A DNA stretch of 64,000 nucleotides. It comes from Candidatus Bathyarchaeota archaeon. Lineage in GTDB: Archaea > Thermoproteota > Bathyarchaeia > 40CM-2-53-6. The number at the start of each line of letters is the position of its first letter. Within the stretch, counting starts at the first letter, position 1. The notes beneath the pieces were generated by a model. That model did no database searches and was not told where the DNA came from. It was given only the letters and a program-made list of their open reading frames with translations. The position numbers and the translations under genes are program-made. Location of the stretch: NCBI GenBank assembly GCA_963733055.1, contig CAVTBR010000002.1:320001-384000 (forward strand). The letters are read 5' to 3'. This document shows, piece by piece, positions 42,898-57,160 of this stretch.

Positions 42898-43049
42898 AAA
42901 CCTCCTTTGTATCAGGCGACTTATTTGCCCTCTTCAGACGTGAGTTCTCACATCTCCCGAATAATACGGGAGACCCTTCGACTGAGATCATTGAGAAGTA
43001 CGACAACAGGAGCATAGCTCCGAAAACCAGGCAGCACGATATTTGTACG

Positions 43050-43679
43050 TTAATCGTGTTCCAGCTGCTGGGGCTGGGTCGATTCGGGCGGCTTTTCCGC
43101 GGGTTGGGCTGGAACGCTGCCCGGATATTGTTTCATCCGCGTAAGTCTAAGTCCGTTTTGCACGCAGAACGTGAACAGCCGGTCTGGGAAGCACTTTCTG
43201 CACCACTGTCCAGCCTCCGTAAGCTGATACTCTTTCCTTTCAGTCTCATACCTAGTCTCTGGGGAATTGATGAGCCCCATCTTGTCCATCTTCAGTATGT
43301 ATTGGCGAATTTGGGGCTGAGTTATCTCAACTCCCTTGCCCTGCGCGTAGGTTGTCATGTCTGTCTGGGACAGGGTCTCGTTGTTGTGGAAACTGCGAAG
43401 GAGAATTACGTGGATCAAATCGCCGTTGTTCGTTGTTGTCTTCAGTAGCTTTCTAACTTCGTTGGGGGCGTTCGGAATTATGACTCGACGGATGGTCCTT
43501 GCGTCGTAGCCCACTCGGCTAAGAGCGATTGCGAGGTAAAGTATGGAAAGCAAGATCGAGACGATCACTATCGATGAGTGATTCAGAAGGCTCCAGAGAA
43601 ACGAGAGCACGAGAGCTATCGGCGCCACGAAGACCAGAAACGCCGATGCGATGAGTAAGAGACGCCCCAATGACTCCAA
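43050..43679 (-). CDS. 2-TM protein with a C-terminal winged helix
   Basis: ITQPQIRQYILKMDKMGLI...YQLTEAG. Confidence 0.7.
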   Translation of the reverse strand: MESLGRLLLIASAFLVFVAPIALVLSFLWSLLNHSSIVIVSILLSILYLAIALSRVGYDARTIRRVIIPNAPNEVRKLLKTTTNNGDLIHVILLRSFHNNETLSQTDMTTYAQGKGVEITQPQIRQYILKMDKMGLINSPETRYETERKEYQLTEAGQWCRKCFPDRLFTFCVQNGLRLTRMKQYPGSVPAQPAEKPPESTQPQQLEHD

Positions 43680-43784
43680 CCGACTTTGAAAGTCCTTTGA
43701 TACCGTCTTGCAAGCCCATTAAAGATACTTTGTACCGCCAGACCTGAAATAGCCGGTTCGCTCATCTACTCTCGGTGTGAAAGA

Positions 43785-44678
43785 TTGGCTTCTGTCGAAT
43801 CAAGAATGGGCATTGTGGTGGTACTCGTGATAGTCGTGGTCGCGGCCGGAGTCTTTGTCATGTTCAATCCATTTCCTTCAAAAACACCTCAACCTCCGTC
43901 ACAACCGACCAGCGCCACGTTGAGCATTCAAACGCTCGTTCCCACAAACACGCTCTATGGAAGCCAAGTGGACGTGAAGGAGATCGCAACTAGCCAGGGG
44001 CAGGCCGCCGTCAATCCGAAGCTCACGTTGAGCGTTTCCCTGGGGAACGACACGATCTACACAAACTCACAGCCGATCAATCTGGCGTCACCATTCACGC
44101 AGGATTACACTGTCACGCTAATGGATCCGAATTCCGTAATCCAACCGTCCGCGAGCGCGGCGACCATTCAGAGCACATTATCAGCTGACAACGGAAACGC
44201 CGCACTAAACACAACCTCAATACCGCTCTGGGAACCCTCGGCAACTCTAAAGGTCGACCTACCCAACAGTTGTTTCGTGGGCATATGTAATCCGACTCAA
44301 CCCACACCGTTGAAAGCCGGAACTTATTTGTTCAACAGCGCAACGGTGCAATACATCGGAACCCAGACGCAAACATTCCAGGTCGCCGTAGGAGTCGTCG
44401 TCGGCGCCCAGACTACACCCTACTTCCAGATGAACAAGCAGCTCACACAAAGCTACAGCTACAATGGCAACACAGTATGGATAGCGGGCAGCGACACGAT
44501 CGACTTAGCACACCCACTCTGGAACGTTCCTACCAGCCCAACAGAATTCACTGTGTTAACTGGCGGTATCGCAGGCGCGCAAATCAGCTTCAACATAGTG
44601 CTATACCTCGTGGTCGGAAACGGCCATTATCTTCCTCTGAGCACGATTCCCGAAACATATCAAGTCAACCAGAGCTAG
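43785..44678 (+). CDS. Membrane-anchored secreted beta-rich protein
   Basis: N-terminal anchor, T/S/Q-rich. Confidence 0.7.
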   Translation: MASVESRMGIVVVLVIVVVAAGVFVMFNPFPSKTPQPPSQPTSATLSIQTLVPTNTLYGSQVDVKEIATSQGQAAVNPKLTLSVSLGNDTIYTNSQPINLASPFTQDYTVTLMDPNSVIQPSASAATIQSTLSADNGNAALNTTSIPLWEPSATLKVDLPNSCFVGICNPTQPTPLKAGTYLFNSATVQYIGTQTQTFQVAVGVVVGAQTTPYFQMNKQLTQSYSYNGNTVWIAGSDTIDLAHPLWNVPTSPTEFTVLTGGIAGAQISFNIVLYLVVGNGHYLPLSTIPETYQVNQS

Positions 44679-44685
44679 AACCGAG

Positions 44686-45018
44686 ATGGGTACAGGGCTT
44701 TCCTCGAAATTTCCGCCCGATACGGAGCTTGAGCAGTGGGAGAGAGACCAGTATCTCGAGCTTTTGGAGAACAGAAACGATCTGGTCGGGGGCCTGCAGC
44801 TGCAGGGTCTGTTTCTCTTGAGAAGACGACTCAATCAGCTGAGAGACTTGCTCAACCTCCTCAACACAACCGAACTGCAAGTCAAAGGAGCGACCGAATC
44901 TCTGACTTCTCAACTCAGCAAGTTGAATTCGTCAAGCAGGAGAATTGAAATCGCAACAATATTCCTGTTGGCGGCCACGCTTCTGCTAGTCATCTCGTCC
45001 TTGCTTCACGTACTGTAG
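44686..45018 (+). CDS. Coiled-coil protein with a C-terminal TM
   Basis: Heptad pattern followed by a hydrophobic tail. Confidence 0.55.
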   Translation: MGTGLSSKFPPDTELEQWERDQYLELLENRNDLVGGLQLQGLFLLRRRLNQLRDLLNLLNTTELQVKGATESLTSQLSKLNSSSRRIEIATIFLLAATLLLVISSLLHVL

Positions 45019-45345
45019 CAAAGAAATCCGCTCCGCCTCGTACCACGAAGGCAGGTCTTCGTCTGGCCTTTTTATCGGTGGGTTAAGCATCCGTTTTGTC
45101 ATTCGTCGAAGCGGAACTGTTGGTGAGCGGCACGGAACGATAACGATGTCGGACCACAGCCAATCCTTGAACTTTACAAGAAATTGCGCTATTGGCGGTA
45201 GCGGGTCTCTGATGAGTTGGTCGCCTGCGAAGTATGCTCTCGTGACTTTGCACCGAAACAGGAGCCACTCCGTCTCTACGAGCTCCCATATCGCACCGAC
45301 CCTCGTTTGTGCGGACGAGCGAACGCGCTGTTTGATTTCCGTCAA
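44986..45345 (-). CDS. Hypothetical protein
   Basis: TTG start overlapping the 45342 stop (TTGA). Confidence 0.4.
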   Translation of the reverse strand: MTEIKQRVRSSAQTRVGAIWELVETEWLLFRCKVTRAYFAGDQLIRDPLPPIAQFLVKFKDWLWSDIVIVPCRSPTVPLRRMTKRMLNPPIKRPDEDLPSWYEAERISLLQYVKQGRDD

Positions 45346-46010
45346 GGTCCTACAACCCCTGCGTGAAGCGACGCGAACACCGTGCCCCACTGCCCGAACC
45401 CTGTGATGAGCCCGACCACTCCGATGAGACCGAAGAGAAAGCACACCTTCAGGTCCGTGTCTTTCCAATGAAATATGGCCAGCCGTTGCTTGCCTGTTAT
45501 GCCGAAAACGCCGGCGTGAGTGGGCAGGTCGGCTACCAAGTGGCAACAACTTGCGAGCAGCCCGGCCAAGACCGTCCATTGCCAGAACACCGGAAACGAG
45601 AACCCAAGGAAAGACATGACAAACTCGAAGAGCATTCCGGCGGCCAGCCCGACGATCACGCCGACGACAGGCGCAGTGAGCACGGAGTGCGTCCTCGCTG
45701 TTCTGACCGGTATTGATTTGTTCTGTGATTGACTCCAAACCCGCCTGTGGCCGAAACCGTCGATCGCCCCATCGGTCCACACGGCGACGATCCAGAGCGG
45801 TATGAATCCGAGTATGGCTGACGAACTCACGGAACTCAGCGGTCCCGTTAGCCAACCACCCGCGAATGGAATCGGCGAGACGAACTGCGAAGCCAAGCCC
45901 ACGGAGGGAAACGTTAGCCCACTGGTTGTGATCATGGTTGTCAGGCTTGGCAGGAAACAAGCAGCTACTACGCCGGCAGAAAATATGTTGTGGATGATGA
46001 GCTTCGACAT
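45342..46010 (-). CDS. Membrane metal-dependent hydrolase, DUF1286/YdjM-like
   Basis: H..FS.G, DGFGH.R, RT..THS, HLVADL.T..GV. Confidence 0.75.
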   Translation of the reverse strand: MSKLIIHNIFSAGVVAACFLPSLTTMITTSGLTFPSVGLASQFVSPIPFAGGWLTGPLSSVSSSAILGFIPLWIVAVWTDGAIDGFGHRRVWSQSQNKSIPVRTARTHSVLTAPVVGVIVGLAAGMLFEFVMSFLGFSFPVFWQWTVLAGLLASCCHLVADLPTHAGVFGITGKQRLAIFHWKDTDLKVCFLFGLIGVVGLITGFGQWGTVFASLHAGVVGP

Positions 46011-46263
46011 TACTGGTCGTCCGTCTCGTCCTCAAGGATTTTGTTTTGTAGTAGCTTCAGTAGGTTGCCGACTGTCACGCAGAATCCCAGGCCCAGGCCG
46101 GCCCATGCGTGTTGGATTTAAACCCAGCAGGGCACCCAAGGGGTCTCCGCTGTCTCCAGCAGGAAGGTGTAGGTGACTCGAACAAGATACTGACGGCTAC
46201 TACAATAGATACCAAATCCATCAGATTGACCAAGCAAACTGATGACTGGAGAGATCGGCGGAG

Positions 46264-46887
46264 TTGAGTTCCCGGGCACCCAGACTATTTCACTACGAGG
46301 AGGAACTTCGGAGCGCAGAAAGAGCTCTAGACACAAAGTTGTACCGGGCTTGTATACTTCACTGCGTGCTTGCCGTCGAGGCGTTTGTCTGGGACCTGCT
46401 GTGGGGAAACGATCATGTTGGTGTGGTCTTCCCACCCGGGACGAATCCCGTGCCGTACCAGACTGTTGATTTGATTTTCCAGTATGTGCGTCCCTGCGTA
46501 GACGAACATGGGAAACCCGCCCCAGTCTATCCACCTGATTATCAGGTCGGTCATCCGGAACTGAAGCCCTACATGGAGGCGTTCCGCAAAGCGAACAAGA
46601 AATTATTCAGAAACGGCTCGGACGGCTTACTCCTAGCTCAGGCCGTTCGGACCGGCGTAGTGAGCGCGGACGAAGCAGAGTCAGTGCGAAGGCTTCGCAC
46701 CATACGTGATTTCTGTTGCCACTTCAACCCCTACTGCCGCACGCTGCAGAACTACAAGGAATGCCTGCGGAATTTCAGCATCGAAATCGACGCATTCAAG
46801 GAGCTACCGCAAGTCGCCTCAAAGGTCTTCGAAGAAACAAGGGGGCTGCTCGACACTTGGGTCGGGCGTAGAAGAGCGCCGACCTAG
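46264..46887 (+). CDS. HEPN-like protein
   Basis: AERAL....YRACI......VE and the Rx4H motif RDFCCH. Confidence 0.6.
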   Translation: MSSRAPRLFHYEEELRSAERALDTKLYRACILHCVLAVEAFVWDLLWGNDHVGVVFPPGTNPVPYQTVDLIFQYVRPCVDEHGKPAPVYPPDYQVGHPELKPYMEAFRKANKKLFRNGSDGLLLAQAVRTGVVSADEAESVRRLRTIRDFCCHFNPYCRTLQNYKECLRNFSIEIDAFKELPQVASKVFEETRGLLDTWVGRRRAPT

Positions 46888-46903
46888 GTTCGTTTCTCAA
46901 ATA

Positions 46904-47482
46904 TCAGAGAAAGGCGATGCTCTGAACGTCCTTCTCCGAAATGAACATCTGTTTGCCGAGGCGGAGCTTCTTTGTCGCCTCGTGGTTCCCGTCGCGGATT
47001 ATCATTTCGGGCTGGAGAAGACGGAGTTCCTTGGCCGTGTCGCCTGTCCCGACCGAGTCTAACTGGCCCATTATTTCTTGTCCTAGAGCCGTATGCACCA
47101 AGACGAAGTTCGGCTCGTTCCGCTTCAGGCTCTTCACAATTGCCCCCCACACGGTTCCCGGATGATAGCCTTGCCTGAACAGTCTCCTTCCTACTAGCCC
47201 GGGGAAAAGCCCGATCGCAATTGAGAGTGCTAGCAGCAGCGTGATGTTCTGCGGCATTAGCGCCGCTTCCCTGATCTTGTCGAGGCTATCGATCGAGGTC
47301 AGGTATGAGAAGGGGACGTATATCACGAGGCTGAGCGCGAAGCTGATCACCGTCATATCGAAGTCTGAGAATTTTCGGTCGTACGCGAATACCCACGCAA
47401 AAACCTTGGCCGAAACGAAACCCGGGACTAACAGTACGACCAGCACAAGAGCGTCCGCTAGCGAGGGGAGGTCGAGGACCAT
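46904..47482 (-). CDS. DUF6338-like membrane protein
   Basis: LLVPGFV, 3 TM segments, TVW, then a C-terminal beta domain ending I...D.QSIAF. Confidence 0.7.
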   Translation of the reverse strand: MVLDLPSLADALVLVVLLVPGFVSAKVFAWVFAYDRKFSDFDMTVISFALSLVIYVPFSYLTSIDSLDKIREAALMPQNITLLLALSIAIGLFPGLVGRRLFRQGYHPGTVWGAIVKSLKRNEPNFVLVHTALGQEIMGQLDSVGTGDTAKELRLLQPEMIIRDGNHEATKKLRLGKQMFISEKDVQSIAFL

Positions 47483-47491
47483 GTTCTCCCT

Positions 47492-47641
47492 CTACTGCTT
47501 CTTGTCTTCCTTCTTGATCGGCTCAGGTTGAGGAACGGGCGGAGGGGTTGCATTGACCGACGCTGCGAGATCTCGTCGTTCGCCCTGGAAGACCTGGAAG
47601 TACTCTTTGATTTTGACGTCCTTCTTTTCTTCGTCGCCCAA
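47492..47641 (-). CDS. 49-aa charged, Pro-rich peptide upstream of the DUF6338-like gene
   Basis: Not in the ORF track; MGDEEKKDVKIKEYFQVFQGERRDLAASVNATPPPVPQPEPIKKEDKKQ, ends 9 nt before the next ATG. Confidence 0.6.
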   Translation of the reverse strand: MGDEEKKDVKIKEYFQVFQGERRDLAASVNATPPPVPQPEPIKKEDKKQ

Positions 47642-47771
47642 GGTTAACCACGATGACCCCGTTGGATCCTAGTTATTAGTTCTACAGGTTGGGACGGAAC
47701 TCGTTGAGCGTTTGGTCGGTAGGCTTTTGGAAACGATTGATGGCCACATGCACGGGATAATTGTAATCCGT

Positions 47772-47969
47772 TTACTGCTTGTCCAAGTCTATTCCCAGTT
47801 GCTTCTTGGCCTCTTTGATTTTGTCTGTGTAGTCGAGACCCACGCCGCTGTCGGGACCACCGCACTCCTCCCACTCGCCTCCATCAAACGACTTCAGCAT
47901 ACCCTCGAAGTTGTAGCTGACCGAGTGGCCTGCGGCAGATTTGTTTTCGTCCTCATGCTTCTCGCTCAT
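47772..47969 (-). CDS. Small acidic hypothetical protein
   Basis: GAGGTGA RBS; overlaps the MTase stop. Confidence 0.5.
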   Translation of the reverse strand: MSEKHEDENKSAAGHSVSYNFEGMLKSFDGGEWEECGGPDSGVGLDYTDKIKEAKKQLGIDLDKQ

Positions 47970-49344
47970 CAGTGTTCACCTCGCTGAATTGAAGAAGTCC
48001 GTTCCTGTGAAGTTCGGTCACGGGCGTCGGCGGTCTCTTGCGCTCGTGCCTGATGCGGTAGTCCGCCAGCCTTCGGTAATCTTCCGAGACCTCAATGCCC
48101 AACCAATCCCTTCCAAGGTTCTCGGCGACCAGCCCGCTTGTGCCCGAGCCAAAGAACATGTCCAGCAGAATCCCTGGTCTGTGGCCTGCGCCGCAGCCGC
48201 AGTCAGTCCAGCCGACCGTCTTCTTGACAGGCGTCAAGATGTCTTTCTGCGGCATCTCCCGCTTGTCGCAGAACGCCCATGGATTGGTTCTTCGCTCGCC
48301 CCACTGCTGATTGACTTTGTCGATTGTCTCCACGATGCGGACTCTCGGCTTGCCACACTTCGAGCAAACCCACGCGGGACAGCCTGCGAGGATCAGTTGT
48401 TTGACGAGATCCTTCGGGAATGTTGCCGTGTGAGTGAGCCAGTCCGTGGCTCCGCAGGCGCACCGCCTCGTGAAGTGTTTCTTGTGCGCTCTCTCGCCCA
48501 CATCGCCGCGGTTGGGTCGTCTCAGTCCGCTGTAGTTCCTGGGTGGGGCTTCGACGGCTTCGAGCACGTCCCAGTCAGTCTTGGCGTAGACTTGCTTGCA
48601 TCGCTTGCAGAGCTGGTAGCCGAGCAGCGTGGGATTTGCCGTGATGACGTTGCGGGCGATTCTCCACAGGTCAGATGTCTCGGAGCTTCTCTCCTGCACG
48701 GCGAAGGTATCATAGTAGTAGTGCCCGGCCTTCGTTAACATATAGACGAATTCCCAGGTGTTCGTGCGGCGGTCCTCTGCGGACTCGGGTCTAGCGTTCC
48801 GCTTGACCCACGCAATTCGGTCCCTGAGATACCACCCATCCTTTTGGAGGGCGGCGACGAGCTTCTCTGGGACGAGACAGAGATCTTTGCCCTTGAGTCC
48901 GATGCCCGCACGGCCGTAAGGTCGGAGATAGTCGTCGCCTCTCCCGCCACCTCTGAAGTCCCCGCCAGGACTCCCTGAGCCGCAGTAGCAGTCGCCTACG
49001 TTCAAGTAGCACACGCCGTCGCTGCGCAGCTTCTGCCTCGCAATGCGAAAGACTTCGACGAGGTGCTCGACATAGAGTTCGACCGACGGTTCGATCCCCA
49101 GGGCCCCACGCCAAGCGCTGCAGATGTGGCAGAATTCTCCAGCGTCATGGGCGGTCCACTCGTGGACGCAGTGTGGGTTTCCGCCGAGCGCTTGGTTCTG
49201 CTCGCCGCCTGCGTAAAGGCGCTGCGAAAGATAGGGCGGAGAAGTGACTATGCAGCTGACGGCGTTGTCGGGCAGGGTCATCATCATCGTGGCAGCGTCC
49301 CCTTGTAGAATTCGGTTGACGGCGAGGGTTGCCGTCTCCGACAT
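47953..49344 (-). CDS. Beta-class DNA methyltransferase (SPPY, probably N4-cytosine) with Cys-rich insertions
   Basis: IVTSPPY, LNVGD, W.K.N..PES..DR, H.ATFP, LDMFFGSGT, GIEVS; ATG overlaps the upstream TGA. Confidence 0.92.
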   Translation of the reverse strand: MSETATLAVNRILQGDAATMMMTLPDNAVSCIVTSPPYLSQRLYAGGEQNQALGGNPHCVHEWTAHDAGEFCHICSAWRGALGIEPSVELYVEHLVEVFRIARQKLRSDGVCYLNVGDCYCGSGSPGGDFRGGGRGDDYLRPYGRAGIGLKGKDLCLVPEKLVAALQKDGWYLRDRIAWVKRNARPESAEDRRTNTWEFVYMLTKAGHYYYDTFAVQERSSETSDLWRIARNVITANPTLLGYQLCKRCKQVYAKTDWDVLEAVEAPPRNYSGLRRPNRGDVGERAHKKHFTRRCACGATDWLTHTATFPKDLVKQLILAGCPAWVCSKCGKPRVRIVETIDKVNQQWGERRTNPWAFCDKREMPQKDILTPVKKTVGWTDCGCGAGHRPGILLDMFFGSGTSGLVAENLGRDWLGIEVSEDYRRLADYRIRHERKRPPTPVTELHRNGLLQFSEVNTDEREA

Positions 49345-51209
49345 CAGTTCGGCGCCCCCTGTTCGAGCCCGTTGCCGTAGGTCGCCCATCCACGGCGCTG
49401 TTTGCGTGCGAATAATTCCAACTTCTTCGAGTTCGGATACATCCTCTCGACGAGTCGGTAGGCGGCATCGGGCTTCTCGTTGCGTGTGACTCTCGGAGCT
49501 ACGATTACGGAGGGCGAGCGGTTCGCTGCGTTCGGAGTCTTGGGGTCTCCTCGGGTGGCGAGAAGAAGGTGCTCGTGGCGTGTTCGGAAATACGAGCCCC
49601 CGCTTACTTTACGCTGATCCCAGACTGCACCCGTGCGGTATTGGAAGCCCCACCGTCGAATGAGTTCGAGCCCCGATGCGAGCTGCGTGGCGGAAACCCA
49701 CACGAAGAGAACGCATTCGTCGCCGCAGATGTTTTGGATTGGCAGCGCTGACAGTTCCTCAAGCGTCATCGCGGTCGAGCTGGACTGCTCCGACATGCGG
49801 AACGGAGGGTCGGCGACTATCACGCCGTATTTTTCCTTGGGCAGCGGTGGCGTCTTGTTTTGCAGTTGGTGGCGGAGAAGTTCCCGCTTGGCGGCGACGA
49901 TGTTCGTTTTGCCAGCTCTGACCTCCGCTGCAAGGTCTGGTCGGGAGCTCTCTATTTTCTTGAAGTCTGAAACGTAGTGGCTGTTCACGCCGACTGTCTT
50001 TGCGGCGATGTCACGGGCTTTACCCTGCTGTTCCCGTGGTGGAAGTTTTTCCACTGCGGGCGGCGTGTTTCCCTTTTTCAGCGTTGAGAGTTGGCGCTCT
50101 TTTGCTTCCCGCTCTATCAGCGGCAAGATTTCGTTTGCAATAGCTGCCTTCTGTCCATCGGTGAGGTGGCGGCGCTTCAGGTTCATGCTGACGACGTGCT
50201 CGACGAGCGAGCCCTTCGCGTCCCATTCCACGAATTTCGGAGGTATGCCTAGTTCTCGGCAGGCTCGGAGCCTGTTCTTCCCGTCGATTACTCGTCCCTC
50301 GAATTTCTCGATAGGGACTGTCAGCCCGTGCTTCCTAATGTCTTTCTTCAGCGCATGGTATTCTTCTTCGCCCATCGGTGGGAACAGAATTGTCACTGCG
50401 TCGAGGGCGGGAAGGTTCTGTTGGCTGGCGATGCGCTGGCGGAACGCTTCGAGTCGGGCTCGTTGCGTGGTGGTCGCTGGGTTGAGCAGTCCGTTCCTAT
50501 TGAGCGCCGCCAGGCGGTTGATTGCGCCGTCGGGCAGCCCGTTGAAGCCGTTGGTCTTCTCGATGAACGCGACTCGGATTTGGTGTCTGCTCTTCCCGTT
50601 CGGAAGACAGTAGTTGCATTTAGTGCCGCACCAAGTGTCTTCTTTCCGACCCGTGAGCTTGACGCCTGGACGGTCTGCGGGACAGAGGAATTCATTCTCC
50701 GCCGCCTGGGCCTCGTCCTCGACAATCCGTGCGTAATTGTCTCTTGTCTTGTCAATCTTCGAGTCGTGAACGCCGCCGAACCTTTTCGTCACGGCGAAAT
50801 TAGGTAAGCGTTCGAGGGGCGTGAGGTCGAGGTGCAACGACTTGGTGTAGCTGAAGAATTTTACGTCGGGTAGGCGGCGGGCGACTTCTGCCCAGCTGTC
50901 CACGTAAGTTTGCGAATAGAAGTCCCCGCCGTCGTGGACACGAACCGCAAGAACCTTCATCTTCTTCAGGGCTTCGGTCATCCGCTCCACAAAGTCTGGT
51001 CTCGTGGACGCTTTCAGGTTCTCGGCGTCGGCGGCGACCACCGAGCTGAATTCCTTTTGGACCTTGCCGTAGTAGCAGGTCAGCAGGCACGTCGCCGCTC
51101 CTGGACACGTCGAGGGAACTGGAAGGCTCCACACCGCAATCGAGGGGGCGACCTTCTTGTTTCCCTTCGATAGGCTCAAGCGGGGCGGGGTTTCGGCGAC
51201 TACGTCCAT
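49344..51209 (-). CDS. GP88-like domain + ParB N-domain + MT-A70 methyltransferase fusion
   Basis: GNKK..., WSLP...TCPGAATCLLTCY, RVHDGGDFYS..Y...W, YTKS, CP...CGTKCNYC; IDGKNRLRAC; VADPPF...EKP...LELFAR...YGN. Confidence 0.88.
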   Translation of the reverse strand: MDVVAETPPRLSLSKGNKKVAPSIAVWSLPVPSTCPGAATCLLTCYYGKVQKEFSSVVAADAENLKASTRPDFVERMTEALKKMKVLAVRVHDGGDFYSQTYVDSWAEVARRLPDVKFFSYTKSLHLDLTPLERLPNFAVTKRFGGVHDSKIDKTRDNYARIVEDEAQAAENEFLCPADRPGVKLTGRKEDTWCGTKCNYCLPNGKSRHQIRVAFIEKTNGFNGLPDGAINRLAALNRNGLLNPATTTQRARLEAFRQRIASQQNLPALDAVTILFPPMGEEEYHALKKDIRKHGLTVPIEKFEGRVIDGKNRLRACRELGIPPKFVEWDAKGSLVEHVVSMNLKRRHLTDGQKAAIANEILPLIEREAKERQLSTLKKGNTPPAVEKLPPREQQGKARDIAAKTVGVNSHYVSDFKKIESSRPDLAAEVRAGKTNIVAAKRELLRHQLQNKTPPLPKEKYGVIVADPPFRMSEQSSSTAMTLEELSALPIQNICGDECVLFVWVSATQLASGLELIRRWGFQYRTGAVWDQRKVSGGSYFRTRHEHLLLATRGDPKTPNAANRSPSVIVAPRVTRNEKPDAAYRLVERMYPNSKKLELFARKQRRGWATYGNGLEQGAPN

Positions 51210-51595
51210 AGCGTCCTCGCCTTCCGATTGCTACTGACTGCTGGTGGATTGCTCGCGCTTGCGGGTGGCGACTGTTTCCGGTTGCCGCCAGAGTTCTCTT
51301 CTCTGGGCGAGACTTGGGAGGGGCGCTGCGTGTCGCAGGGAGTGTGGACCTCTTGCAGCTTGTCCAAGATGCTCATTTGCATTTTCATGGAGGCTTGTGT
51401 GGTCAGGGACAGAACGTTGACTTCGATGAGGCAGCCGAGAACCTCCTCGCTTGTTTCGCCCGACCTCACGCCGCTATCAACTGCGGTGTCGAAGATTTCG
51501 GCGCAGAGGCTGTTTATGAGGTCGCTGAGGCGGCGGGTGTGCCACTCGTGCGGTTGCGGCTTCCGCTTCGCCTCGTGTTCCCTTGAGATGTCTGA
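51200..51595 (-). CDS. Hypothetical protein (start approximate)
   Basis: Fills the operon between 51604 and 51209. Confidence 0.45.
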   Translation of the reverse strand, partial: SDISREHEAKRKPQPHEWHTRRLSDLINSLCAEIFDTAVDSGVRSGETSEEVLGCLIEVNVLSLTTQASMKMQMSILDKLQEVHTPCDTQRPSQVSPREENSGGNRKQSPPASASNPPAVSSNRKARTLWT

Positions 51596-51603
51596 GTGCT
51601 CGC

Positions 51604-51924
51604 TCACCGCTTGAACCTCCACTTCTCCTGAAGCCTCGGGTGGGCGGTCGTCCCCGCCGCCACGTCGCTGTGAGCACTGCAGAGGATTGCGTGACTTGCT
51701 GGGTCCCAGAAGACCGTCCGCTCAGGTTCGGCTTCGGTGGCGTAGCAGAGGCAGCCGCAGACGGCGCAACGGTGCTCGTGCAAGGTGGTCGTAGCTGAGA
51801 ACAGCTTCACGGTCACGCCACGGGCGTCGCTGGAACGCTTCCTGTTCCAAAGAAGGCGGGTGGCTCTTGGCGTGTTTTGCCCGTCGGTGCGGGCTTCGTT
51901 CGTTCGGTTCGTAGTCGTTTGCAT
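51604..51924 (-). CDS. Small Cys-rich protein, paralogue of 16974-17180
   Basis: HRCAVCGCLCY...TVFWDPASHAILCSAH...HPRLQEKWR. Confidence 0.7.
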   Translation of the reverse strand: MQTTTNRTNEARTDGQNTPRATRLLWNRKRSSDARGVTVKLFSATTTLHEHRCAVCGCLCYATEAEPERTVFWDPASHAILCSAHSDVAAGTTAHPRLQEKWRFKR

Positions 51925-51986
51925 TTGTCATCACGGAACCCTTACCGAAAACGTGAAGTAGAATCGGTGAGCAACGTGAAACGGAA

Positions 51987-52858
51987 GTGTTGCATGTGAA
52001 AGGTAGCCGCACCACGCTGCTGTTTTACCTGCGGCAGCATCCGTACCACGGCGACAATGAAGGAAGCGGCGCGACGCTCTACGAGATGAAGGAGAATGAG
52101 GGATTCAGCACCGCGTTCAGCGGCAAGGTGGTGAGACAGTGGCTGCGGCGAGGCATTGTGAGGGAGTGCGGAAAACCGAAGGAGACAGCCAACGTCCTCA
52201 CAACGAAGGCGACTCCGGTCGGTGGCGATAGAGTCCGCTTGAAGACGCAGCTGACAGACCTGCTGGACCGCGGGGAGGAGACAGGCCGGTCAGGTTCCGC
52301 AGAAGGCCGGTCGCCAAAAGCCTCTCACACCGCGGAAGGAGAGTGTACGAGTTGACGGAACGCGGCGTCAGAGTCGCCAAGCTGATGGGAGTCTTCGTTG
52401 AAAACAACTTCGTGGGAATGACAAGATCGGACAGGGTCGCCCGGGCCCTCGCCCAGAAAGGATTGAAGGGCGGCGACCTCGCCGCCGCCGTCGGATGTGG
52501 ACTGCTCATCCCCAGAACATGGGTCGTAAAGACAATCCCCCTGCCAGGGGAGCTGGAGGAGCTTGTGGACAAGTACGCCGCAGAGACACCCTACCGAGAA
52601 CTCCAGCAGTCAAAGACCGAAACAACCATGACCGGCGCGCAGTTCAAGTCGATGACGGACCTCTCCTACCTGCTCAACACGAAGACGACGCCGTTCATCG
52701 ACAAGAAGGCGCTGAGAGACATGTTCGGAGGCGAACCCAACGCCAACGGCAAAGTGGTAAGCACGCCCGAGAAGACGAAAAGACTGGTAGAAGAGAAAGA
52801 GAGAAGAATGATACAGGAACCCGCGGCCCTCTCGTTCATAGACTGGGCAATCGAGTAG
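51987..52858 (+). pseudogene. Winged-helix-like regulator split over two frames, paralogue of 17474-18388
   Basis: YELTERGVRVAKL...LAQKGL.GGDLAAAV aligns with YHITDKGRRVAAL...LGRHGF.AHHVVAAV; frameshift between about 52230 and 52343. Confidence 0.55.
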
Positions 52859-53013
52859 GCGAATTCAGTTCGTTATACTCGCGCTCAAGAGCGGTGACGG
52901 GGCGCGGATACTAAAAACCTGCTGTGTTGGGTTGGTCTTTCAAGACGCAGATTTCTCGGAACTTGTATCGCCACGGCCTCTCTTCGATGACGCCGCGGCC
53001 AAGCACCCGGACC

Positions 53014-53052
53014 GTTAATTGAGCAATTTCGTGTAACAATTGCTCAATTAAC
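53014..53052. repeat. Perfect 15-bp inverted repeat with a 9-bp spacer
   Basis: GTTAATTGAGCAATT-tcgtgtaac-AATTGCTCAATTAAC. Confidence 0.95.
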
Positions 53053-53174
53053 CCAGCTTAAGCTAATTCGAAATGTTCGGGGGAGAAGCTCGAAAGAACG
53101 GAACGGTCAGAGAACGCTCGGTGACTCGGAAATCGTATATTCTCGGTCTGAAACGATTACGCCATTGAACGAGC

Positions 53175-54014
53175 TTGGCTAGTTCTGTCCTAAGCGATGA
53201 TGAACACATCGTAATGGAGACCGCTGCAACCGTCTATTACACGAGGTTTGAGAGTGATGAGAATGCGCGAGGCACACTCTTTTTGCTTGACGATGGAAGC
53301 GTGGTCTTTGTCACTAAACGGCTACTAGTATTCGGATACGAAAGACACCATGGATATGACAAAGGGCAGATTCTGAAGGTTGAAACCTACAGCGACGGTT
53401 TCAAAGCACATGTTCTCTTCCCTGAAAGTGGGGACGAACCCGAAGAAGTGATTTCTTACTTCTACGAAATCGAACGCGATGTAGACCGTTGGGCAGCCGC
53501 TTTGTCCAGAGCCCCTGAACAACCGAAGAGAGTGGACGCCGTTCCTGCAACAACGTCACAACCTATTGAAGTCAAACCACAAGCATTGGATTGGATCGGT
53601 GAGGTAGAACCAGAGAAAGAGTCAGGGCCAAGTGTAACCAATGCGGCAGTCTCTTCGATGAAAAGGAAGACAGGTGCCATCACTGCTGTGCAGAGCGAAT
53701 TTCTGACGCAATTACGCTCAAAACTAGACGAGCATCTGATGCCCCACGCAAGAAGCGTCAGAAAACTGGCTGGCTATTTACTCGGGTTTGCGGTACTGAG
53801 CCTTCTCGCGGTTTTTGCGCTTTTGTTTTTGGCCGTGAACGAATATCTCATTGGTTTGTGGTCACTTTCCGCTCTTGTAGCACTGTTCTCTGGACTTGCG
53901 TTCGCAAACTACGGCATCGCGCAAGCAACTCCAGCAGAACAAGAGGCGGCAGAGAATTTCTGGAAGAGAAATTCTGATTTGTCGAGTATTATCTGGTACA
54001 ATAAGTCGGCCTAA
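53175..54014 (+). CDS. PH-like N-terminal domain + 2-TM protein
   Basis: RGTLFL...VVFV...D.W..AL pattern; C-terminal TM hairpin. Confidence 0.6.
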   Translation: MASSVLSDDEHIVMETAATVYYTRFESDENARGTLFLLDDGSVVFVTKRLLVFGYERHHGYDKGQILKVETYSDGFKAHVLFPESGDEPEEVISYFYEIERDVDRWAAALSRAPEQPKRVDAVPATTSQPIEVKPQALDWIGEVEPEKESGPSVTNAAVSSMKRKTGAITAVQSEFLTQLRSKLDEHLMPHARSVRKLAGYLLGFAVLSLLAVFALLFLAVNEYLIGLWSLSALVALFSGLAFANYGIAQATPAEQEAAENFWKRNSDLSSIIWYNKSA

Positions 54015-54038
54015 GCAATCTTTCTGATCGTAGTTGGG

Positions 54039-55007
54039 TTGATTATGTGGACCTCGGTGCTGCAAGTCGCTCAGGGAAAAGCTGCGGGCACAATAAGTCA
54101 ATCCGCTCTGGTCTTCTTCGTCGGGTTAGCTTCAATAATATTGGGAGGGTCCCGAGCTAAGCAAGCGATTCGTCTATCTGCTGAGGCAGGGGGAGTTGGT
54201 AGACATTTCACTAAACGCAACTTCGGGTTTGCGCTTGTTATTCTGTGGTTACCTCTTTGGTATGTGGCGTACGAGAGGTACCTTGCCTATCAAGCCCTCA
54301 TCGACATAAGCCCACAACCTGCCAGAGATGCAATGGTGCAGACTGCTGTCCTTGTCATTGGGGGATTGCTCTCGGCTGGCATGGGTTATGAGCTTATCAA
54401 TCCTGTCGCATGGGTCGCAGATTGGCGGTACAAGAAATCCGCGATTAGGACGGAAACACTCTCAGAGCTAAGATCGCTGTCTCCTTCCCAATTTGAGGTA
54501 GCAGTGGCCCAGCTGTTACGCGATCTGGACTATCGAAATGTTAGCGTTGTCGGAGGCGCTGGCGATCTAGCTAGAGACATTCGTTGTAAAGATCCGGAAG
54601 GAAAAAGCGTCAGTGTTCAGTGCAAGAAATACGGTGAAGGTCATTCGGTTAGTTCGCCCGATGTTCAGCGGTTCATAGGAATGCTGATCACCGAGCATCA
54701 CGCGAAGCGAGGAATCATTGTAACGACAACGGAACTCACAGAGCATGCACGAAATCTCTGCCGTAACCACGAAGTAGAAGTTTGGGACAGCGAAAAACTG
54801 CCTGACTTGCTGAACCAAGCAAAACGAAGACAAAGACCAAATGAGAAACCCATAGCCACCGCTCTCCTCATGAGTCCGCGACAAACGACGCTAAATGTAA
54901 CTGAAACTAAGAAGGTAAGTCTTGAGAAACAGTTCTGTCTAGAATGTGGCACCCAACTTCCGGTTGGTTCAAAATTCTGCACGAAGTGTGGAACTAAGCA
55001 AGCCTGA
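54039..55007 (+). CDS. Membrane-anchored Mrr-family restriction endonuclease with a C-terminal Zn ribbon
   Basis: LSPSQFE..VA.LL..L.Y, GD..RDI, VQCKKY, V...DVQ.F.G, GIIVTT; FCLECG...KFCTKCG. Confidence 0.85.
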   Translation: MIMWTSVLQVAQGKAAGTISQSALVFFVGLASIILGGSRAKQAIRLSAEAGGVGRHFTKRNFGFALVILWLPLWYVAYERYLAYQALIDISPQPARDAMVQTAVLVIGGLLSAGMGYELINPVAWVADWRYKKSAIRTETLSELRSLSPSQFEVAVAQLLRDLDYRNVSVVGGAGDLARDIRCKDPEGKSVSVQCKKYGEGHSVSSPDVQRFIGMLITEHHAKRGIIVTTTELTEHARNLCRNHEVEVWDSEKLPDLLNQAKRRQRPNEKPIATALLMSPRQTTLNVTETKKVSLEKQFCLECGTQLPVGSKFCTKCGTKQA

Positions 55008-55034
55008 TCCGCTATCTTGCGAGGGCTAGTGAGT

Positions 55035-55991
55035 ATGAGTCGCTTGAAGGTCGGGCTTCTGATTTTTGGAGTTCTCGGTGCCTTTCTGGTTGTCTTCTTC
55101 GCGACCTTTGGCGTATTGGTGCTTATCAATCGTCAAGGCTCAGTTCAGTTACAAACAGCAGTAGCGTTCTCCCAGATAGTTGTCGGTATTGCTGAAGGGC
55201 TGATTGCTCTGGGTATCGGTGCGGAGGCAGTCCTGGGAGGATATTCTTTTTTGAAAAGGGAGCGCAAGGAGCATTATGAGAAAATCAACGACAAGGTGCT
55301 GAAGCAACTCAGTGGCATACGCCCTGAGGCTATTACTTCTGCCCCAGAGGATAGACTCCGAGACTACAAGTTAGGCGTTGGCAATTTCCCCGATAACGAG
55401 TATTTGAGCAAAAACGCTTGGTTGCATATCAAACAAGAGGATGCCTCAGCATACGAAGCGCTGCGTACTCTGCGAGCGAGCATAAAAGAACACAACCAGA
55501 GGGTCGATTCTACTCAATATGAGATCATGAACTCGATACAGAGTAGGTTCCCTAGCCACGAATTCGCTACTGAGCCGCCCACGGCATGGGCTTACAATCT
55601 GCAGAATACTATCATTCCGGCTCTTTTCTCGTTCTGGAAGGAGCACCTCGAACTTGTTAGGTCTAGAGACGGAGCACAGCTTTTGGGCGCCTTCAATTCA
55701 GTTTATTCCACGTTTTATGATAGTAATGGATTATTCCTACAGAGAGAGGGCAGAGGGAACTCTGTCTGGCCCGGCACGCAGCAGAAGGGTCTCGAAATCT
55801 TCGAAATCATGAAGGGCATATTGGTTGATCCGGTAATTTTGCGTGGAATTAGTGAAGTTGAAAATTCAAAATCTACTTTGATTCATACTATCACCAAAAT
55901 CAGTGAAGTGGCAACTAGAATCAGCAACGCCATCGACGCTGGCGACTATGTGACAGTGGTAGATTGTTGTCCCTCAATTTTAGGTTTCTAA
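55035..55991 (+). CDS. Hypothetical 2-TM + helical protein
   Basis: ATG ORF, hydrophobic N-terminus. Confidence 0.6.
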   Translation: MSRLKVGLLIFGVLGAFLVVFFATFGVLVLINRQGSVQLQTAVAFSQIVVGIAEGLIALGIGAEAVLGGYSFLKRERKEHYEKINDKVLKQLSGIRPEAITSAPEDRLRDYKLGVGNFPDNEYLSKNAWLHIKQEDASAYEALRTLRASIKEHNQRVDSTQYEIMNSIQSRFPSHEFATEPPTAWAYNLQNTIIPALFSFWKEHLELVRSRDGAQLLGAFNSVYSTFYDSNGLFLQREGRGNSVWPGTQQKGLEIFEIMKGILVDPVILRGISEVENSKSTLIHTITKISEVATRISNAIDAGDYVTVVDCCPSILGF

Positions 55992-56138
55992 GCGTAAGTC
56001 ACCCACAAGACTGTATTCATGAGAGGATTAAGAAGAAGGTCACAAGGGAACCTCCGATCGGGGCATGCCGTCCATGCTTGAAGCGTGTGTCCGTTGAGGC
56101 GGAAGTTCCCGAAAGAGATCGTGTTATGAGGCTAGCGA

Positions 56139-56672
56139 ATGAGTGATTTTCTCTCCGTTCTCGGGGTGGCGGTCGGTATTGTTGGAGGAACTGCAGGTGT
56201 CATCAGCCTCGTGGTTCAATTTGTGAGAGATAGAGCGCGTCTGCAATTGACAGTTCTTCGGAGTTCGTTCGGGAACGAACCCGGTGTCGGCTGGCTTGAC
56301 ATCAGATTCGAGATCAGTAACGTCGGAAACTTTCACACCTCCGTAACTCAGTTGAATGCGTGGATTATGGACGGCGCGAATCGGCTGGAAGGCGAGCTGG
56401 ACAAGTTGAGACCTAACGAGACAGACACGCTGATTAGGGCAGGGTATCGGCCTGATGAGCCCCCTCGGATGACGGTTTCTCTACCTCAAGGAATCGGTGG
56501 GCATTCCAGCGAAATCTACACAGCAATCTTTCGGCTGGAGAGGAGCATTGAAACTGGGCACGAAACGGCCTGCGGATTGACAATAACGCACACGCATGGT
56601 GAAATCAGCGTCGAAGCAGTTGCTCATCCTCAGCCACTGCAGCGTGCGGTAGGCAGACAGGGAGAGCAATAG
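56139..56672 (+). CDS. Membrane-anchored beta-domain protein
   Basis: TM followed by I.N.G...TSV. Confidence 0.6.
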   Translation: MSDFLSVLGVAVGIVGGTAGVISLVVQFVRDRARLQLTVLRSSFGNEPGVGWLDIRFEISNVGNFHTSVTQLNAWIMDGANRLEGELDKLRPNETDTLIRAGYRPDEPPRMTVSLPQGIGGHSSEIYTAIFRLERSIETGHETACGLTITHTHGEISVEAVAHPQPLQRAVGRQGEQ

Positions 56673-57133: not shown

Positions 57134-57160
57134 GCAAAGGGTAAGTGTTCAAGAATGGAA

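Follow-up and report, generated by a model that had tools for sequence, protein, structure and literature searches.

The locus described here raises the question of what a GP88 domain contributes when it is joined, within a single polypeptide, to a DNA methyltransferase; the fusion is very rare and hints at a possible new kind of DNA modification. It lies in a 64,000-nucleotide stretch of a Candidatus Bathyarchaeota contig (the window), in which an earlier note had described one uninterrupted reading frame of 621 residues (ORF A) followed by a second methyltransferase gene (ORF B). The frame is open throughout 49344..51209 on the minus strand, both of the outer domains that the note had named (GP88 and MT-A70) are matched by Pfam, and the listed GP88 motifs, namely the cysteine triad, RVHDGGDF, YTKS (residues 121-124), and a C-terminal cysteine cluster, were all found upon translation. 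The reading favored here, to which about an even chance is given, is that ORF A and ORF B constitute an orphan operon for DNA modification, carried by an integrated mobile element of an archaeon, with GP88 as a radical-SAM-like component. The relevant features are as follows:

39574..40671, minus strand: stand-alone ParB-MT-A70 paralogue of 365 aa with DPPY; 55-56% identity to ORF A residues 264-620
47953..49344, minus strand: ORF B, beta-class N6/N4 amino-methyltransferase of 463 aa whose insertions are rich in Cys (18 in the whole protein), from Pfam N6_N4_Mtase
48139..48162, minus strand: DMFFGSGT, the SAM-binding motif I of ORF B, near the C-terminus, FGSGT at residues 398-402
49231..49242, minus strand: motif IV SPPY of ORF B, residues 35-38, from the translation
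49342..49346, minus strand: TGATG overlap, the ORF A stop sharing its A with the ORF B start, read from the sequence
49344..51209, minus strand: ORF A, 621 aa, GP88 - ParB N/HTH - MT-A70 fusion, stop TGA at 49344-49346
49347..49844, minus strand: MT-A70 N6-adenine methyltransferase domain, residues 456-621, from Pfam, METTL3, and PADLOC matches
49800..49811, minus strand: catalytic motif IV DPPF, residues 467-470, from the translation; DPTF in orthologue P0002
49845..50417, minus strand: ParB-like N domain (DGKNRLRA box) and HTH-like helical region, residues 265-455, from PHROG profiles
50418..50561, minus strand: GP88 C-terminal tail, residues 217-264, which now serves as a linker; the end of stand-alone GP88 relatives falls here (alignment A3)
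50562..51209, minus strand: GP88 core, residues 1-216, from Pfam; AF2 and structure search predict a radical-SAM-like partial alpha/beta barrel
50607..50684, minus strand: C-terminal four-Cys site C176-P...C194-x3-C198-x2-C201, from the translation; candidate auxiliary cluster or zinc site
50919..50942, minus strand: RVHDGGDF, residues 90-97, at and just after strand 88-91, aligning with 'MgDlf' of DUF5131-like proteins
51072..51107, minus strand: N-terminal Cys triad CPGAATCLLTCY (C35-x5-C41-x3-C45-Y46), from the translation
51200..51622, minus strand: upstream 140-aa ORF sharing 10 nt with the start of ORF A; the operon may begin with it

Judged from alignment, ORF A is an end-to-end join of a complete stand-alone GP88 protein and a complete ParB-MT-A70 protein, as the stand-alone GP88 relatives P0059, P0062, and P0208 stop where the stand-alone paralogue starts (alignment A3). 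The central ParB N-domain of the earlier note was recovered, but not as an N-domain only: an HTH-like helical region, recognized by eye, is also present, with helices at residues 351-452 of the model. The assignment of this part draws on PHROG profiles (phrog_4715 at residues 281-438, E 1.7e-12; phrog_12047, E 5.8e-10) and on phrog_21315 (415 positions, E 4.7e-47), of which positions 10-114 fall on the ParB part and positions 233-405 on the MT-A70 part. Pfam placed no family on residues 254-440, even at E 10, and the TIGR00180 parB model reached E 0.0041 and 16.9 bits, under its cut-off of 58.45. The DGKNRLRA box was spotted by eye; Box II of the ParB-CTPase fold is an arginine-rich GxxRxxA. 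That ParB-MT-A70 fusions are a known kind, as the note had stated, agrees with the available part of a survey in which archaeal and phage ParB-methyltransferase fusions appear and those with MT-A70 are reported as archaea-enriched (PMC12704722).

An assembly artefact or pseudogene, with two or three genes misread as one, is barely credible, even though the source genome belongs to a metagenome-type assembly whose contamination is 5.28%. The earlier note had raised the case of a fusion unique to this assembly and broken between its domains; the same 621-residue ORF recurs in a second assembly as P0002, which is 81% identical over its whole length and retains all seven GP88 cysteines. Run-level contigs identical to the window span the GP88/ParB (50252-51019), ParB/MT-A70 (49690-49967), and ORF A/B (49188-49479) junctions, though their sample (X1) may be the source sample of the assembly; a 151-nt contig with four differences from the window, obtained from another sample (X2), spans 50400-50550. 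The architecture is real and no assembly accident. P0002, the ORF B orthologue P0224 (91% identical), and P0004, the orthologue of the stand-alone paralogue (98.4% identical), probably share one contig, because each lists a longest contig of 82,106 bp. The note's unfamiliarity with this arrangement is borne out by its rarity, as only 2 of 58 homologues (from the window and one other assembly) carry the GP88-ParB-MT-A70 fusion, and a literature search found no paper naming the combination.

The MT-A70 domain is recognized by Pfam (PF05063, residues 461-613; E 8.5e-27, 94.6 bits against a cut-off of 23.9), by PADLOC (MTase_II, E 7.1e-39), and by comparison with METTL3 (E 2.9e-16 by sequence; Foldseek E 3.4e-13). 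Motif IV of MT-A70 enzymes, the catalytic one, is DPP[WYF]; given the DPTF of P0002, methylation of adenine by this domain may be dispensable. A rival proposal, in which the fused domain is a weakened or inactive partner in the manner of METTL14 or MTA9 and pairs with the canonical paralogue, such that ORF A would bring GP88 and the ParB/HTH module to the paralogue's sites, gains from this substitution, from the presence of two MT-A70 paralogues within one island, from a loop after DPPF that is 8 residues shorter than the paralogue's and without its HYP segment, and from the closest solved relatives being METTL3-METTL14 and MTA1-MTA9, heterodimers in which one subunit is inactive (according to PDB entry titles). 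Nevertheless, the window's own DPPF is intact, the loop has the length of the METTL3 loop in a gap-free alignment, and MT-A70 is the best-conserved part of the fusion (91.6% identity to P0002, versus 72.7% for GP88, the fastest-evolving part); such a partnership is accordingly considered improbable, and an active fused methyltransferase in a DNA-modification operon is preferred.

ORF B matches Pfam N6_N4_Mtase (PF01555; E 1.3e-27, 97.6 bits) and PADLOC MTase_II (E 3.8e-62), and its motif I is C-terminal to motif IV, which gives the beta order. The reported overlap of the ORF A TGA with the ATG of the SPPY methyltransferase is present as TGATG at 49346-49342; the longest possible ORF B would start at an upstream ATG at 49389, and the orthologue P0224 starts at the overlap Met. 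Among 50 ORF B homologues, S35 and P37 of SPPY are invariant and P36 and Y38 are kept in at least 90%. An SPPY motif is a hint of m4C. Of the label "Cys-rich N4C-type", the first half holds (18 Cys in 463 aa), and ORF B may be either an N4C or an N6A enzyme, as the PDB matches mix m6A enzymes (DpnA, CcrM, and MboIIA) with m4C enzymes (PvuII and another N4 enzyme) at similar E. A type II restriction-modification system was considered and rejected for want of a cognate endonuclease beside the methyltransferases: no nuclease family was found in the flanking ORFs at 41365-47482 and 51200-54014, and the type IV enzyme of Mrr type at 54039-55007 is directed at methylated DNA and is not a cognate partner. 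The upstream 140-residue ORF had no family match and no PADLOC match.

The note's placement of these genes in an archaeal element is in keeping with the ribosomal protein S27e present in the host genome and with the position of the genes inside a strain-specific island that carries an integrase:

10466..57160, no strand: strain-specific island of ~47 kb, running from a tRNA-like gene (3' end) to a fragment resembling a tRNA 3' end
14711..15865, minus strand: tyrosine recombinase (integrase) of the island, PF00589 E 2.3e-15 (G000:C2:334882-335358)

DNA conservation against 22 genus relatives ends at about 10461-10465 and returns at about 57164. The island may be composite, its boundaries being taken from the relatives' DNA in a comparison of the window minus the 20001-44000 stretch. 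The same island also houses a true DUF5131/TcmP pair at 26941-28552, whose DUF5131 member (27758-28552) matches its family at E 2.4e-90.

The GP88 assignment itself is firm, as Pfam PF17338 matches residues 23-179 (E 9.1e-32; 111.2 bits, clearing the gathering score of 24.4 bits) and the domain scores 114 bits in a genome-wide search. In an alignment of 60 GP88 sequences, C45 is invariant and C35, C41, and Y46 are present in at least 90%, while the four-Cys site, kept in P0002, is missing from one subgroup of GP88 proteins. The AlphaFold2 model (pLDDT 91.9, pTM 0.88) places the triad in the loop/helix that follows the first long strand (strand 24-27, helix 40-44); RVHDGGDF, read by eye, presumably corresponds to the SAM-binding 'GGE' motif of radical SAM enzymes. 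A structure search with this model (VIA, 48,161 chains) returned radical SAM enzymes in all 17 best rows, at Z 6.7-5.3, led by SPL 4fhc (Z 6.7, 177 aligned) and followed by QueE, PFL-AE, viperin, LipA, and others, with the tool advising that Z < 8 may reflect a common arrangement; Foldseek gave nothing at E <= 0.001. When 60 GP88 sequences were compared with 21 DUF5131-like sequences using hhalign, P was 5.4e-5 over 103 columns at a probability of just 60-67%, versus P of about 0.2 for two unrelated control alignments, and the last two cysteines, SGDF with MgDlf, and YTKS with LTKn were paired. A PDB profile search provided no sequence link from GP88 to radical SAM enzymes, Pfam Radical_SAM (PF04055) was not among the ORF A matches at E 0.1, NCBIfam likewise supplied no radical SAM model, and ORF A matched neither PF07505 (Pfam) nor PDC-M30B/M41B (PADLOC). 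The triad, CX5CX3C, differs from the defining CX3CX2C, which GP88 does have, though at its C-terminal end (residues 194-201). In the available part of one radical SAM study, the triad variants all retain CX2C and none is matched by CX5CX3C; there DUF5131 is a radical SAM subgroup (Megacluster-5-2, CX6CX2C) sharing its megacluster with spore photoproduct lyase (PMC9477430). The radical-SAM-like character that the note had suggested is consistent with both the predicted fold and the profile link to DUF5131, and GP88 looks to be a divergent, radical-SAM-like relative of DUF5131 and of enzymes of the spore photoproduct lyase type, a likeness that appears to be new here.

Alternatively, GP88 could be non-catalytic, its cysteine sites binding zinc or an Fe-S cluster with a structural or redox-sensing role, and the domain acting as a DNA-binding, targeting, or regulatory module of the methyltransferase. 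The non-canonical triad spacing, the zinc-ribbon-like spacing of the four-Cys site, the extra zinc ribbons frequent in GP88 relatives (including a weak ZPR1 zinc-ribbon match in L004/P0069), and the rapid evolution of GP88 within the fusion would all suit such a module; R.H.sGDF, YTKS, N137, and S143 would not, as the model has them on consecutive strands in the manner of radical SAM barrels, the conserved motifs align with DUF5131-like proteins, some of which bear the canonical CX3CX2C, and conserved non-Cys motifs would be superfluous in a structural module. This alternative is therefore deemed quite unlikely, and a catalytic, radical-SAM-like GP88 is retained.

GP88 genes occur in 3 of 23 genomes of the genus, and all four of them are methyltransferase-linked, by fusion or adjacency, with three different kinds of partner. 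In the window, MT-A70 is fused and an N6_N4 gene coupled; in L003, GP88 is fused to a DPPY class-I methyltransferase domain (Methyltransf_11, E 3.6e-4); an N6_N4 gene overlaps the GP88 gene in L006 (E 1.3e-34); and a divergent N6_N4 gene lies beside it in L004 (E 8.3e-35). The L003 fusion is known from one assembly, and P0060, a fragment with 100% identity, departs from its frame past residue 212, before the join of GP88 and methyltransferase is reached. A further fusion, N6_N4-GP88, is seen in P0201. The four cases from the genus are related, a quick tree grouping them within a single clade of 19 rows, and the clade of the ORF A GP88 has the C-terminal tail, with methyltransferase linkage in 5/5 members of known context. 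Overall, GP88 is mostly independent of methyltransferases: an N6_N4-like gene occurs in 3 of 80 GP88 loci, three inspected phage contexts contained no methyltransferase, and the archaeal family f30 has GP88 either flanked by aminotransferase and dehydroquinase/chorismate-mutase genes or next to AAA_5 and Cas6.

These contexts bear on a further explanation, which is doubtful yet the most substantial of the rivals, wherein stop-codon loss produced a chance or convenience fusion with a neighboring ParB-MT-A70 gene and no chemical coupling, GP88 retained a phage-type, methyltransferase-independent job (on a nucleotide, RNA, protein, or small molecule), and the operon yields ordinary m6A and/or m4C only. 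GP88 is mostly stand-alone (of 150 representatives in a listing, the majority have 180-260 aa; the note had mentioned stand-alone GP88 proteins in phages), methyltransferases make up just 2 of 109 immediate neighbors at 76 viral loci, where terminase is commonest, the f30 context is chromosomal with aromatic amino-acid genes, the join is exact and end to end between two complete proteins, and the fusion is limited to two close relatives. Conversely, three methyltransferase kinds at 4/4 genus genes, together with the P0201 fusion, make chance unlikely, and the frame has stayed open with every cysteine kept despite 19% protein divergence.

According to the favored DNA-modification operon, a complete GP88-family gene would have fused end to end with a complete ParB-MT-A70 gene to give ORF A, whose ParB/HTH module would keep the protein on DNA while its MT-A70 domain (DPPF) methylates N6 of adenine and the co-translated ORF B adds a second amino-methylation, at N6 of adenine or N4 of cytosine. 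The CX5CX3C triad sits where a SAM-binding [4Fe-4S] cluster would be, with the four-Cys site as a second candidate metal site; the tethered GP88 would cleave SAM and perform radical chemistry on the same DNA, coupled to methylation, resulting in a further base change or in lesion repair. The net role may be marking or protecting the element's DNA against restriction.

Several known systems invite comparison. ORF A residues 265-621 (phrog_359, E 7.7e-44) would correspond in full to a ParB(CTPase fold)-MT-A70 fusion, from which ORF A differs by a whole GP88 protein added at the N-terminus; GP88 is mentioned zero times in the main text of the ParB-fusion survey, as far as available (PMC12704722). 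Members of Pfam GP88 (PF17338; mycobacteriophages, Streptomyces phages, and others) have the Cys triad, R.H.sGDF, and YTKS in common with ORF A, although typical ones are stand-alone, about 190-220 aa, and annotated as hypothetical, whereas the GP88 of ORF A is fused. DUF5131 (PF07505, formerly phage Gp37/Gp68) likewise has a three-Cys domain and then [SG]DF and TK[RS] in the same order, and with TcmP (TIGR04474) it is paired, as GP88 is with its methyltransferases, with a second SAM-enzyme-like gene, the two being the PADLOC defence candidates PDC-M30/PDC-M41; the spacing differs (CX5CX3C versus CX6CX2C), and the partners of GP88 are bona fide DNA amino-methyltransferases, not TcmP. Spore photoproduct lyase, which acts on DNA, is with QueE, PFL activase, and viperin among the top structural matches (Z 6.7-6.4, still below 8, with 150-177 residues aligned), although these small radical SAM enzymes share neither a sequence-level match nor the Cys spacing. 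Lastly, the available part of a study of phage C5-MT and TET clusters describes a methyltransferase-then-oxidase path to hypermodified DNA (PMC8256090), and by analogy two-step hypermodification by GP88 and a methyltransferase is plausible. The logic is the same, a DNA methyltransferase being genetically tied to an enzyme that may act on its mark, and those clusters are likewise associated with ParB proteins; however, the second enzyme in those phages, TET, is an Fe/2OG dioxygenase that requires O2 and is proven to act on 5mC (PMC8256090), rather than a putative radical-SAM-like domain, and ORF A and ORF B would place their marks on exocyclic amines.

Every motif that the earlier note had listed for the fusion of a GP88-like, a ParB-like and an MT-A70 domain is present in the translation where it had been placed. 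The two coupled genes are as follows:

49344-51209, minus strand: ORF A, a single open frame of 621 codons (GP88, ParB N/HTH, MT-A70)
47953-49344, minus strand: ORF B, an amino-methyltransferase gene with an SPPY motif

In ORF A, Pfam assigns residues 23-179 to GP88 (PF17338, E 9.1e-32) and residues 461-613 to MT-A70 (PF05063, E 8.5e-27), and it returns no family for the middle region, even when this is excised and searched at E 10. ParB-like PHROG profiles match residues 281-438 (phrog_4715, E 1.7e-12; phrog_12047, E 5.8e-10), phrog_21315, a 415-position profile of unknown function, matches one stretch in the ParB part and another in the MT-A70 part (E 4.7e-47), and TIGR00180 gives a sub-threshold match to the middle (E 0.0041). 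By eye, this region resembles a ParB N domain (IDGKNRLRACRELG), after which come a helix with the conserved sequence NLKRRHLT and an HTH-like stretch of helices; the full-length model places helices at 351-452. The stop codon of ORF A overlaps the start of ORF B in a TGATG (49346-49342), and, although an alternative ATG lies upstream at 49389, P0224, the orthologue of ORF B (91% identical), begins at the overlapping methionine. Judged by its sequence, ORF B is a beta-class amino-methyltransferase (N6_N4_Mtase, E 1.3e-27 in Pfam; SPPY near the N-terminus, DMFFGSGT near the C-terminus, 18 cysteines in 463 residues), whose base specificity is not readable from these features, since enzymes of solved structure match it equally well whether they make m6A or m4C. 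A 140-aa ORF that matches no family overlaps the start of ORF A by 10 nt. Since neither family nor PADLOC models reveal a cognate nuclease among the neighbouring ORFs, ORF A and ORF B are regarded as orphan methyltransferases of a mobile element.

The fusion is real and is not confined to this assembly. From a collection of 5.8 billion protein clusters, the 8,000 candidates (341-1,087 aa) sharing the most words were scored, and homologues were accepted at E ≤ 1e-5; GP88 and MT-A70 occur together in only two of the 58 homologues, namely the window protein and P0002. An assembly artefact is hardly credible, as P0002 is a protein of the same 621-aa length in a different assembly, 81% identical to ORF A, and as run-level contigs bridge all three junctions. 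In the comparison of single-run public contigs with the window, those identical to it from a soil run that is possibly the source sample (X1) span 50252-51019, 49690-49967, and 49188-49479; a 151-nt contig from a second run (X2) spans 50400-50550 with four differences. Identity between ORF A and P0002 is 72.7% in the GP88 core, 72.9% in the tail, 83.2% in the ParB/HTH part, and 91.6% in the MT-A70 part, and all seven GP88 cysteines are retained. P0002, P0224, and P0004, the last being the orthologue of a ParB-MT-A70 paralogue in the window, probably lie on one contig (the longest contig listed for each is 82,106 bp), and the whole gene set therefore probably recurs. Searches of viral and genome contigs yielded no further fusion copies, and the sole result of an additional contig search was a ParB-MT-A70 relative from a bacterium (33% identity over residues 270-613). 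One contig of X2, a freshwater-sediment run, tracks the window from 50390 to 50525, differing at 20 of 136 nt, and diverges at 50390 into unlike sequence toward the ParB-coding side; it possibly represents a relative whose GP88 tail is unjoined to this ParB sequence.

The origin of the fusion can be read from an alignment with stand-alone proteins that includes a paralogue from the same stretch:

39574-40671, minus strand: ParB-MT-A70 paralogue, 365 aa, DPPY motif, 55-56% identical to its counterpart in ORF A

The nearest stand-alone GP88 proteins (P0059, P0062, and P0208; 230-290 aa) extend through a conserved tail, WNG.P..A..RL..L...GL..P.T.TQ..RLE, and end at the point where the paralogue begins; thus, ORF A comprises two complete proteins placed end to end, with the GP88 tail as linker. 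That the fused MT-A70 domain is an inactive, METTL14-like partner of the paralogue is considered a lesser alternative, and two features bear on it: the loop after DPPF in ORF A is eight residues shorter than that of the paralogue and can be aligned gap-free with that of METTL3, and the motif reads DPTF in P0002, so that the fused methyltransferase may not need to be active. The paralogue itself is 98.4% identical to P0004, a conservation well above the 81% of ORF A; a 195-aa ORF overlapping it downstream (39014-40671 region, minus strand) has no Pfam or PADLOC match.

The GP88 family is large, with 3,293 representative clusters (50% identity) at E ≤ 0.001, mostly 180-260 aa among the 150 representatives listed, and with matches in 368 phage records; the sources searched name it only as hypothetical. 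Among 60 aligned members, C35, C41, C45, Y46, R90, H92, G95, D96, T122, N137, and S143 are invariant or nearly so, and the C-terminal four-cysteine site is absent from one subgroup. An AlphaFold2 model of residues 1-235 (pLDDT 91.9, pTM 0.88) alternates strands with helices and places the cysteine triad in a loop and helix following the first long strand. The earlier note had proposed a radical-SAM-like domain, and the structural comparisons bear this out in part. With Foldseek, no PDB entry reached E ≤ 0.001, the rows obtained being weak and TIM-barrel-like; VIA, run exhaustively over 48,161 chains, places radical SAM enzymes in all of rows 1-17 (Z 6.7-5.3, 146-177 residues aligned), including spore photoproduct lyase, three QueE entries, PFL activase, viperin, SuiB, and two lipoyl synthase entries, although values of Z < 8 may reflect merely a common arrangement and the match is therefore taken as moderate evidence. 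Profiles lend independent support: by hhalign, GP88 aligns with 21 DUF5131-like archaeal proteins (P 5.4e-5, probability 66.6%, 103 columns) in such a way that the final two cysteines correspond, as do SGDF and MgDlf, and YTKS and LTKn; the 15 of these 21 proteins with a canonical CX3CX2C give P 8.9e-5, and two unrelated control alignments give P of about 0.2. DUF5131 is a listed radical SAM subgroup (Megacluster-5-2, CX6CX2C) whose megacluster also holds spore photoproduct lyase, according to the available text of the RadicalSAM.org paper (PMC9477430). The main text of that paper does not mention GP88, and the CX5CX3C spacing of GP88 differs from every variant listed in its available text; the family is therefore termed radical-SAM-like herein rather than filed as a member. 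A non-catalytic, metal-binding role for GP88 is viewed as a lesser alternative. A PDB profile search with the 60 GP88 sequences returned nothing relevant, and the protein atlas offered no functional lead, its matches at 0.94 being confined to viral DUF7227 and unnamed clusters. Among the literature matches listed, none concerned PF17338, hits to "GP88" being mainly progranulin or unrelated phage gp88 proteins, and no description of an architecture combining radical SAM, MT-A70, and ParB was found in a search confined to main texts. Long GP88-containing proteins with other or unknown domains also occur (P0093, P0110, P0173, P0080, and P0086; 753-1,154 aa); a VTC domain is present in P0093 and DUF6321 in P0110, and Pfam leaves the greater part of these proteins without a match.

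ORF A, ORF B, and the paralogue lie in a strain-specific island of an archaeal genome (ribosomal protein S27e, E 1.5e-21; four archaeal controls above the cut-off). In a comparison with 22 genus relatives covering the window outside 20001-44000, DNA conservation stops sharply at 10461-10465 and resumes at about 57164. The principal features of the island and its borders are the following:

10297-10465, plus strand: tRNA-like gene (acceptor GCGGGGA..., long insert or intron, T arm GTGGGTTCGAATCCCAC, ...TCCCCGCACCA, CCA)
14711-15865: tyrosine recombinase gene
26941-29834, minus strand: TcmP, DUF5131, and 426-aa protein genes, adjacent and partly overlapping
54039-55007, plus strand: Mrr-type type IV (methyl-directed) restriction nuclease gene, 3 kb from the methyltransferase operon
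57161-57190, plus strand: tRNA-3'-like fragment, GCGGGGGTTCAAATCCCATTGACCCCA, where conservation with relatives resumes

The tRNA-like gene is 80-89% conserved in most genus relatives, and its 3' end coincides exactly with the point where conservation stops. No tRNA was reported by ARAGORN for the window as a whole or for 57000-57500, nor by Rfam for the two borders; the tRNA reading of 10297-10465 is therefore made by eye alone. The fragment at 57161-57190 may be an old attachment-site scar. With no direct repeats of at least 24 nt in the window, and with a 17/20 match (E 0.19) as the sole similarity between the left and right borders, the attachment sites are not established. Pieces of 130-140 bp similar to 57161-57190 recur in the genome, one of them (407690-407815 of the genome contig) near a second integrase (408467-408949). 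Within the three-gene cluster, the DUF5131 gene (E 2.4e-90; PDC-M41B, E 1.7e-94) encodes C20-x6-C27-x2-C30, TcmP matches TIGR04474 (80.3 bits) and weakly PDC-M41A, and the 426-aa protein has PDC-S05-like and DUF4326 parts; the island thus holds, beside GP88, another radical-SAM-like gene that has a partner. TcmP had been presumed to be RlmJ-like, a reading dropped for want of support from Pfam or PDB. The Mrr-type nuclease ends in a zinc ribbon and has membrane-like segments at its N-terminus. This nuclease, the three-gene cluster, and the ParB-MT-A70 paralogue count as further modification or defence genes of the island.

The company kept by GP88 elsewhere indicates how far the methyltransferase link extends. 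GP88 occurs in 3 of 23 genus genomes and 4 of 59 family genomes and is therefore an accessory gene. Each of the four genus copies is tied to a DNA methyltransferase, the sort or arrangement differing between them: that of the window is fused to MT-A70 and coupled to an N6_N4 enzyme, and the others are fused to a DPPY class-I domain (L003; Methyltransf_11, E 3.6e-4), overlap an SPPY N6_N4 gene by 4 nt (L006), or diverge from an SPPF N6_N4 gene (L004). P0201, an unrelated representative, is an N6_N4-GP88 fusion. In a quick tree of 59 rows hand-picked from the 150 listed representatives plus the loci, the genus proteins group in a single clade of 19 rows (SH-aLRT 90), in which all five rows of known context are methyltransferase-linked and the remaining 14 have no context; label statistics on this tree carry no meaning, most of its rows being without context. 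A 310-aa protein from another sample, P0060, matches residues 9-212 of the GP88-methyltransferase ORF of L003 (470 aa; 850-2262, minus strand) at 100% identity and is fully divergent thereafter, so one of the two records must contain a frameshift; the L003 frame runs on into the conserved GP88 tail.

Outside this clade the link is lost. A degenerate-motif scan of viral contigs gave 91 stretches, with 80 loci listed and a GP88 ORF in 76 of these 80; of 140 flanking ORFs, 109 were kept (≤ 400 nt away and ≥ 80 aa) and 31 dropped. Among the 109, one matches N6_N4, one a C5 methylase, and nine the terminase large-subunit model Terminase_6N; a purpose-made profile finds N6_N4-like genes at 3 of the 80 listed loci, and three annotated phage contexts contain no methyltransferase. 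In a group of related viral contigs (L068, L086, L087, L097, L121, L125, and L130), GP88 overlaps the end of an upstream 394-400-aa gene, and we infer that the Terminase_6N neighbours belong to this group. In another archaeal family, f30, 12 of 23 genomes carry a GP88 homologue (about 290 aa; the f30 loci include L012-L014), which at the two loci scanned with Pfam lies between aminotransferase and dehydroquinase/chorismate-mutase genes; a second paralogue adjoins an AAA_5 ATPase and Cas6. This context hints that some members of the GP88 family serve a chromosomal function apart from methyltransferases. The GP88-methyltransferase link is thus real but particular to the clade, and its four genus instances are related to one another.

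The earlier note had suggested a two-step DNA base modification; the architecture, its conservation, the clade-specific tie to methyltransferases, and the fold likeness of GP88 to radical SAM enzymes stand, and the two-step chemistry remains conjectural. The reading favored here, given roughly an even chance, is that ORF A and ORF B form a DNA-modification module of the island, in which the ParB/HTH part would hold the enzyme on DNA, the two methyltransferases would mark that DNA, and the tethered GP88 domain, presumably with a bound metal cluster, would cleave SAM and perform radical chemistry on the same DNA, possibly in steps that depend on one another. The main rival, in which the fusion is one of convenience and the chemical activities are uncoupled, is possible though unlikely. 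A complex prediction for ORF B and the GP88 domain scored 0.00 in a run without controls and counts neither way, and no RNA runs are listed among the sequencing runs carrying the sequence.

Placement beside DUF5131 and spore photoproduct lyase, like the repeated fusion or coupling of one clade to DNA methyltransferases, offers concrete, testable chemistry for a large family to which no function is assigned. Should GP88 act on DNA, mobile elements would possess a novel enzymatic means of modifying or repairing DNA, with bearing on restriction evasion, archaeal epigenetic marking, and enzyme tools; should the fusion be one of convenience only, it would still serve as a clean "Rosetta stone" implicating nucleic acid as the substrate of GP88, and as one more ParB-methyltransferase variant. 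A bolder and rather doubtful proposal is that GP88 is an unrecognized radical SAM branch with a CX5CX3C cluster motif, acting with amino-methyltransferases on archaeal mobile-element DNA either in hypermodification of the methylated or a neighbouring base by oxygen-independent radical chemistry or in repair of methylation damage, with ParB/HTH delivering both activities to the same DNA. The hypermodification variant would be an anaerobic counterpart of the methyltransferase-plus-TET route, for which the phage C5-MT/TET clusters, also associated with ParB, provide a proven precedent of a methyltransferase followed by a second enzyme (available text of PMC8256090). ParB-MT-A70 fusions have been described as enriched in archaea (available text of PMC12704722). 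ParB-methyltransferase fusions and three-cysteine radical-SAM-like genes with methyltransferase-like partners are kinds already known, of which ORF A is a new variant.
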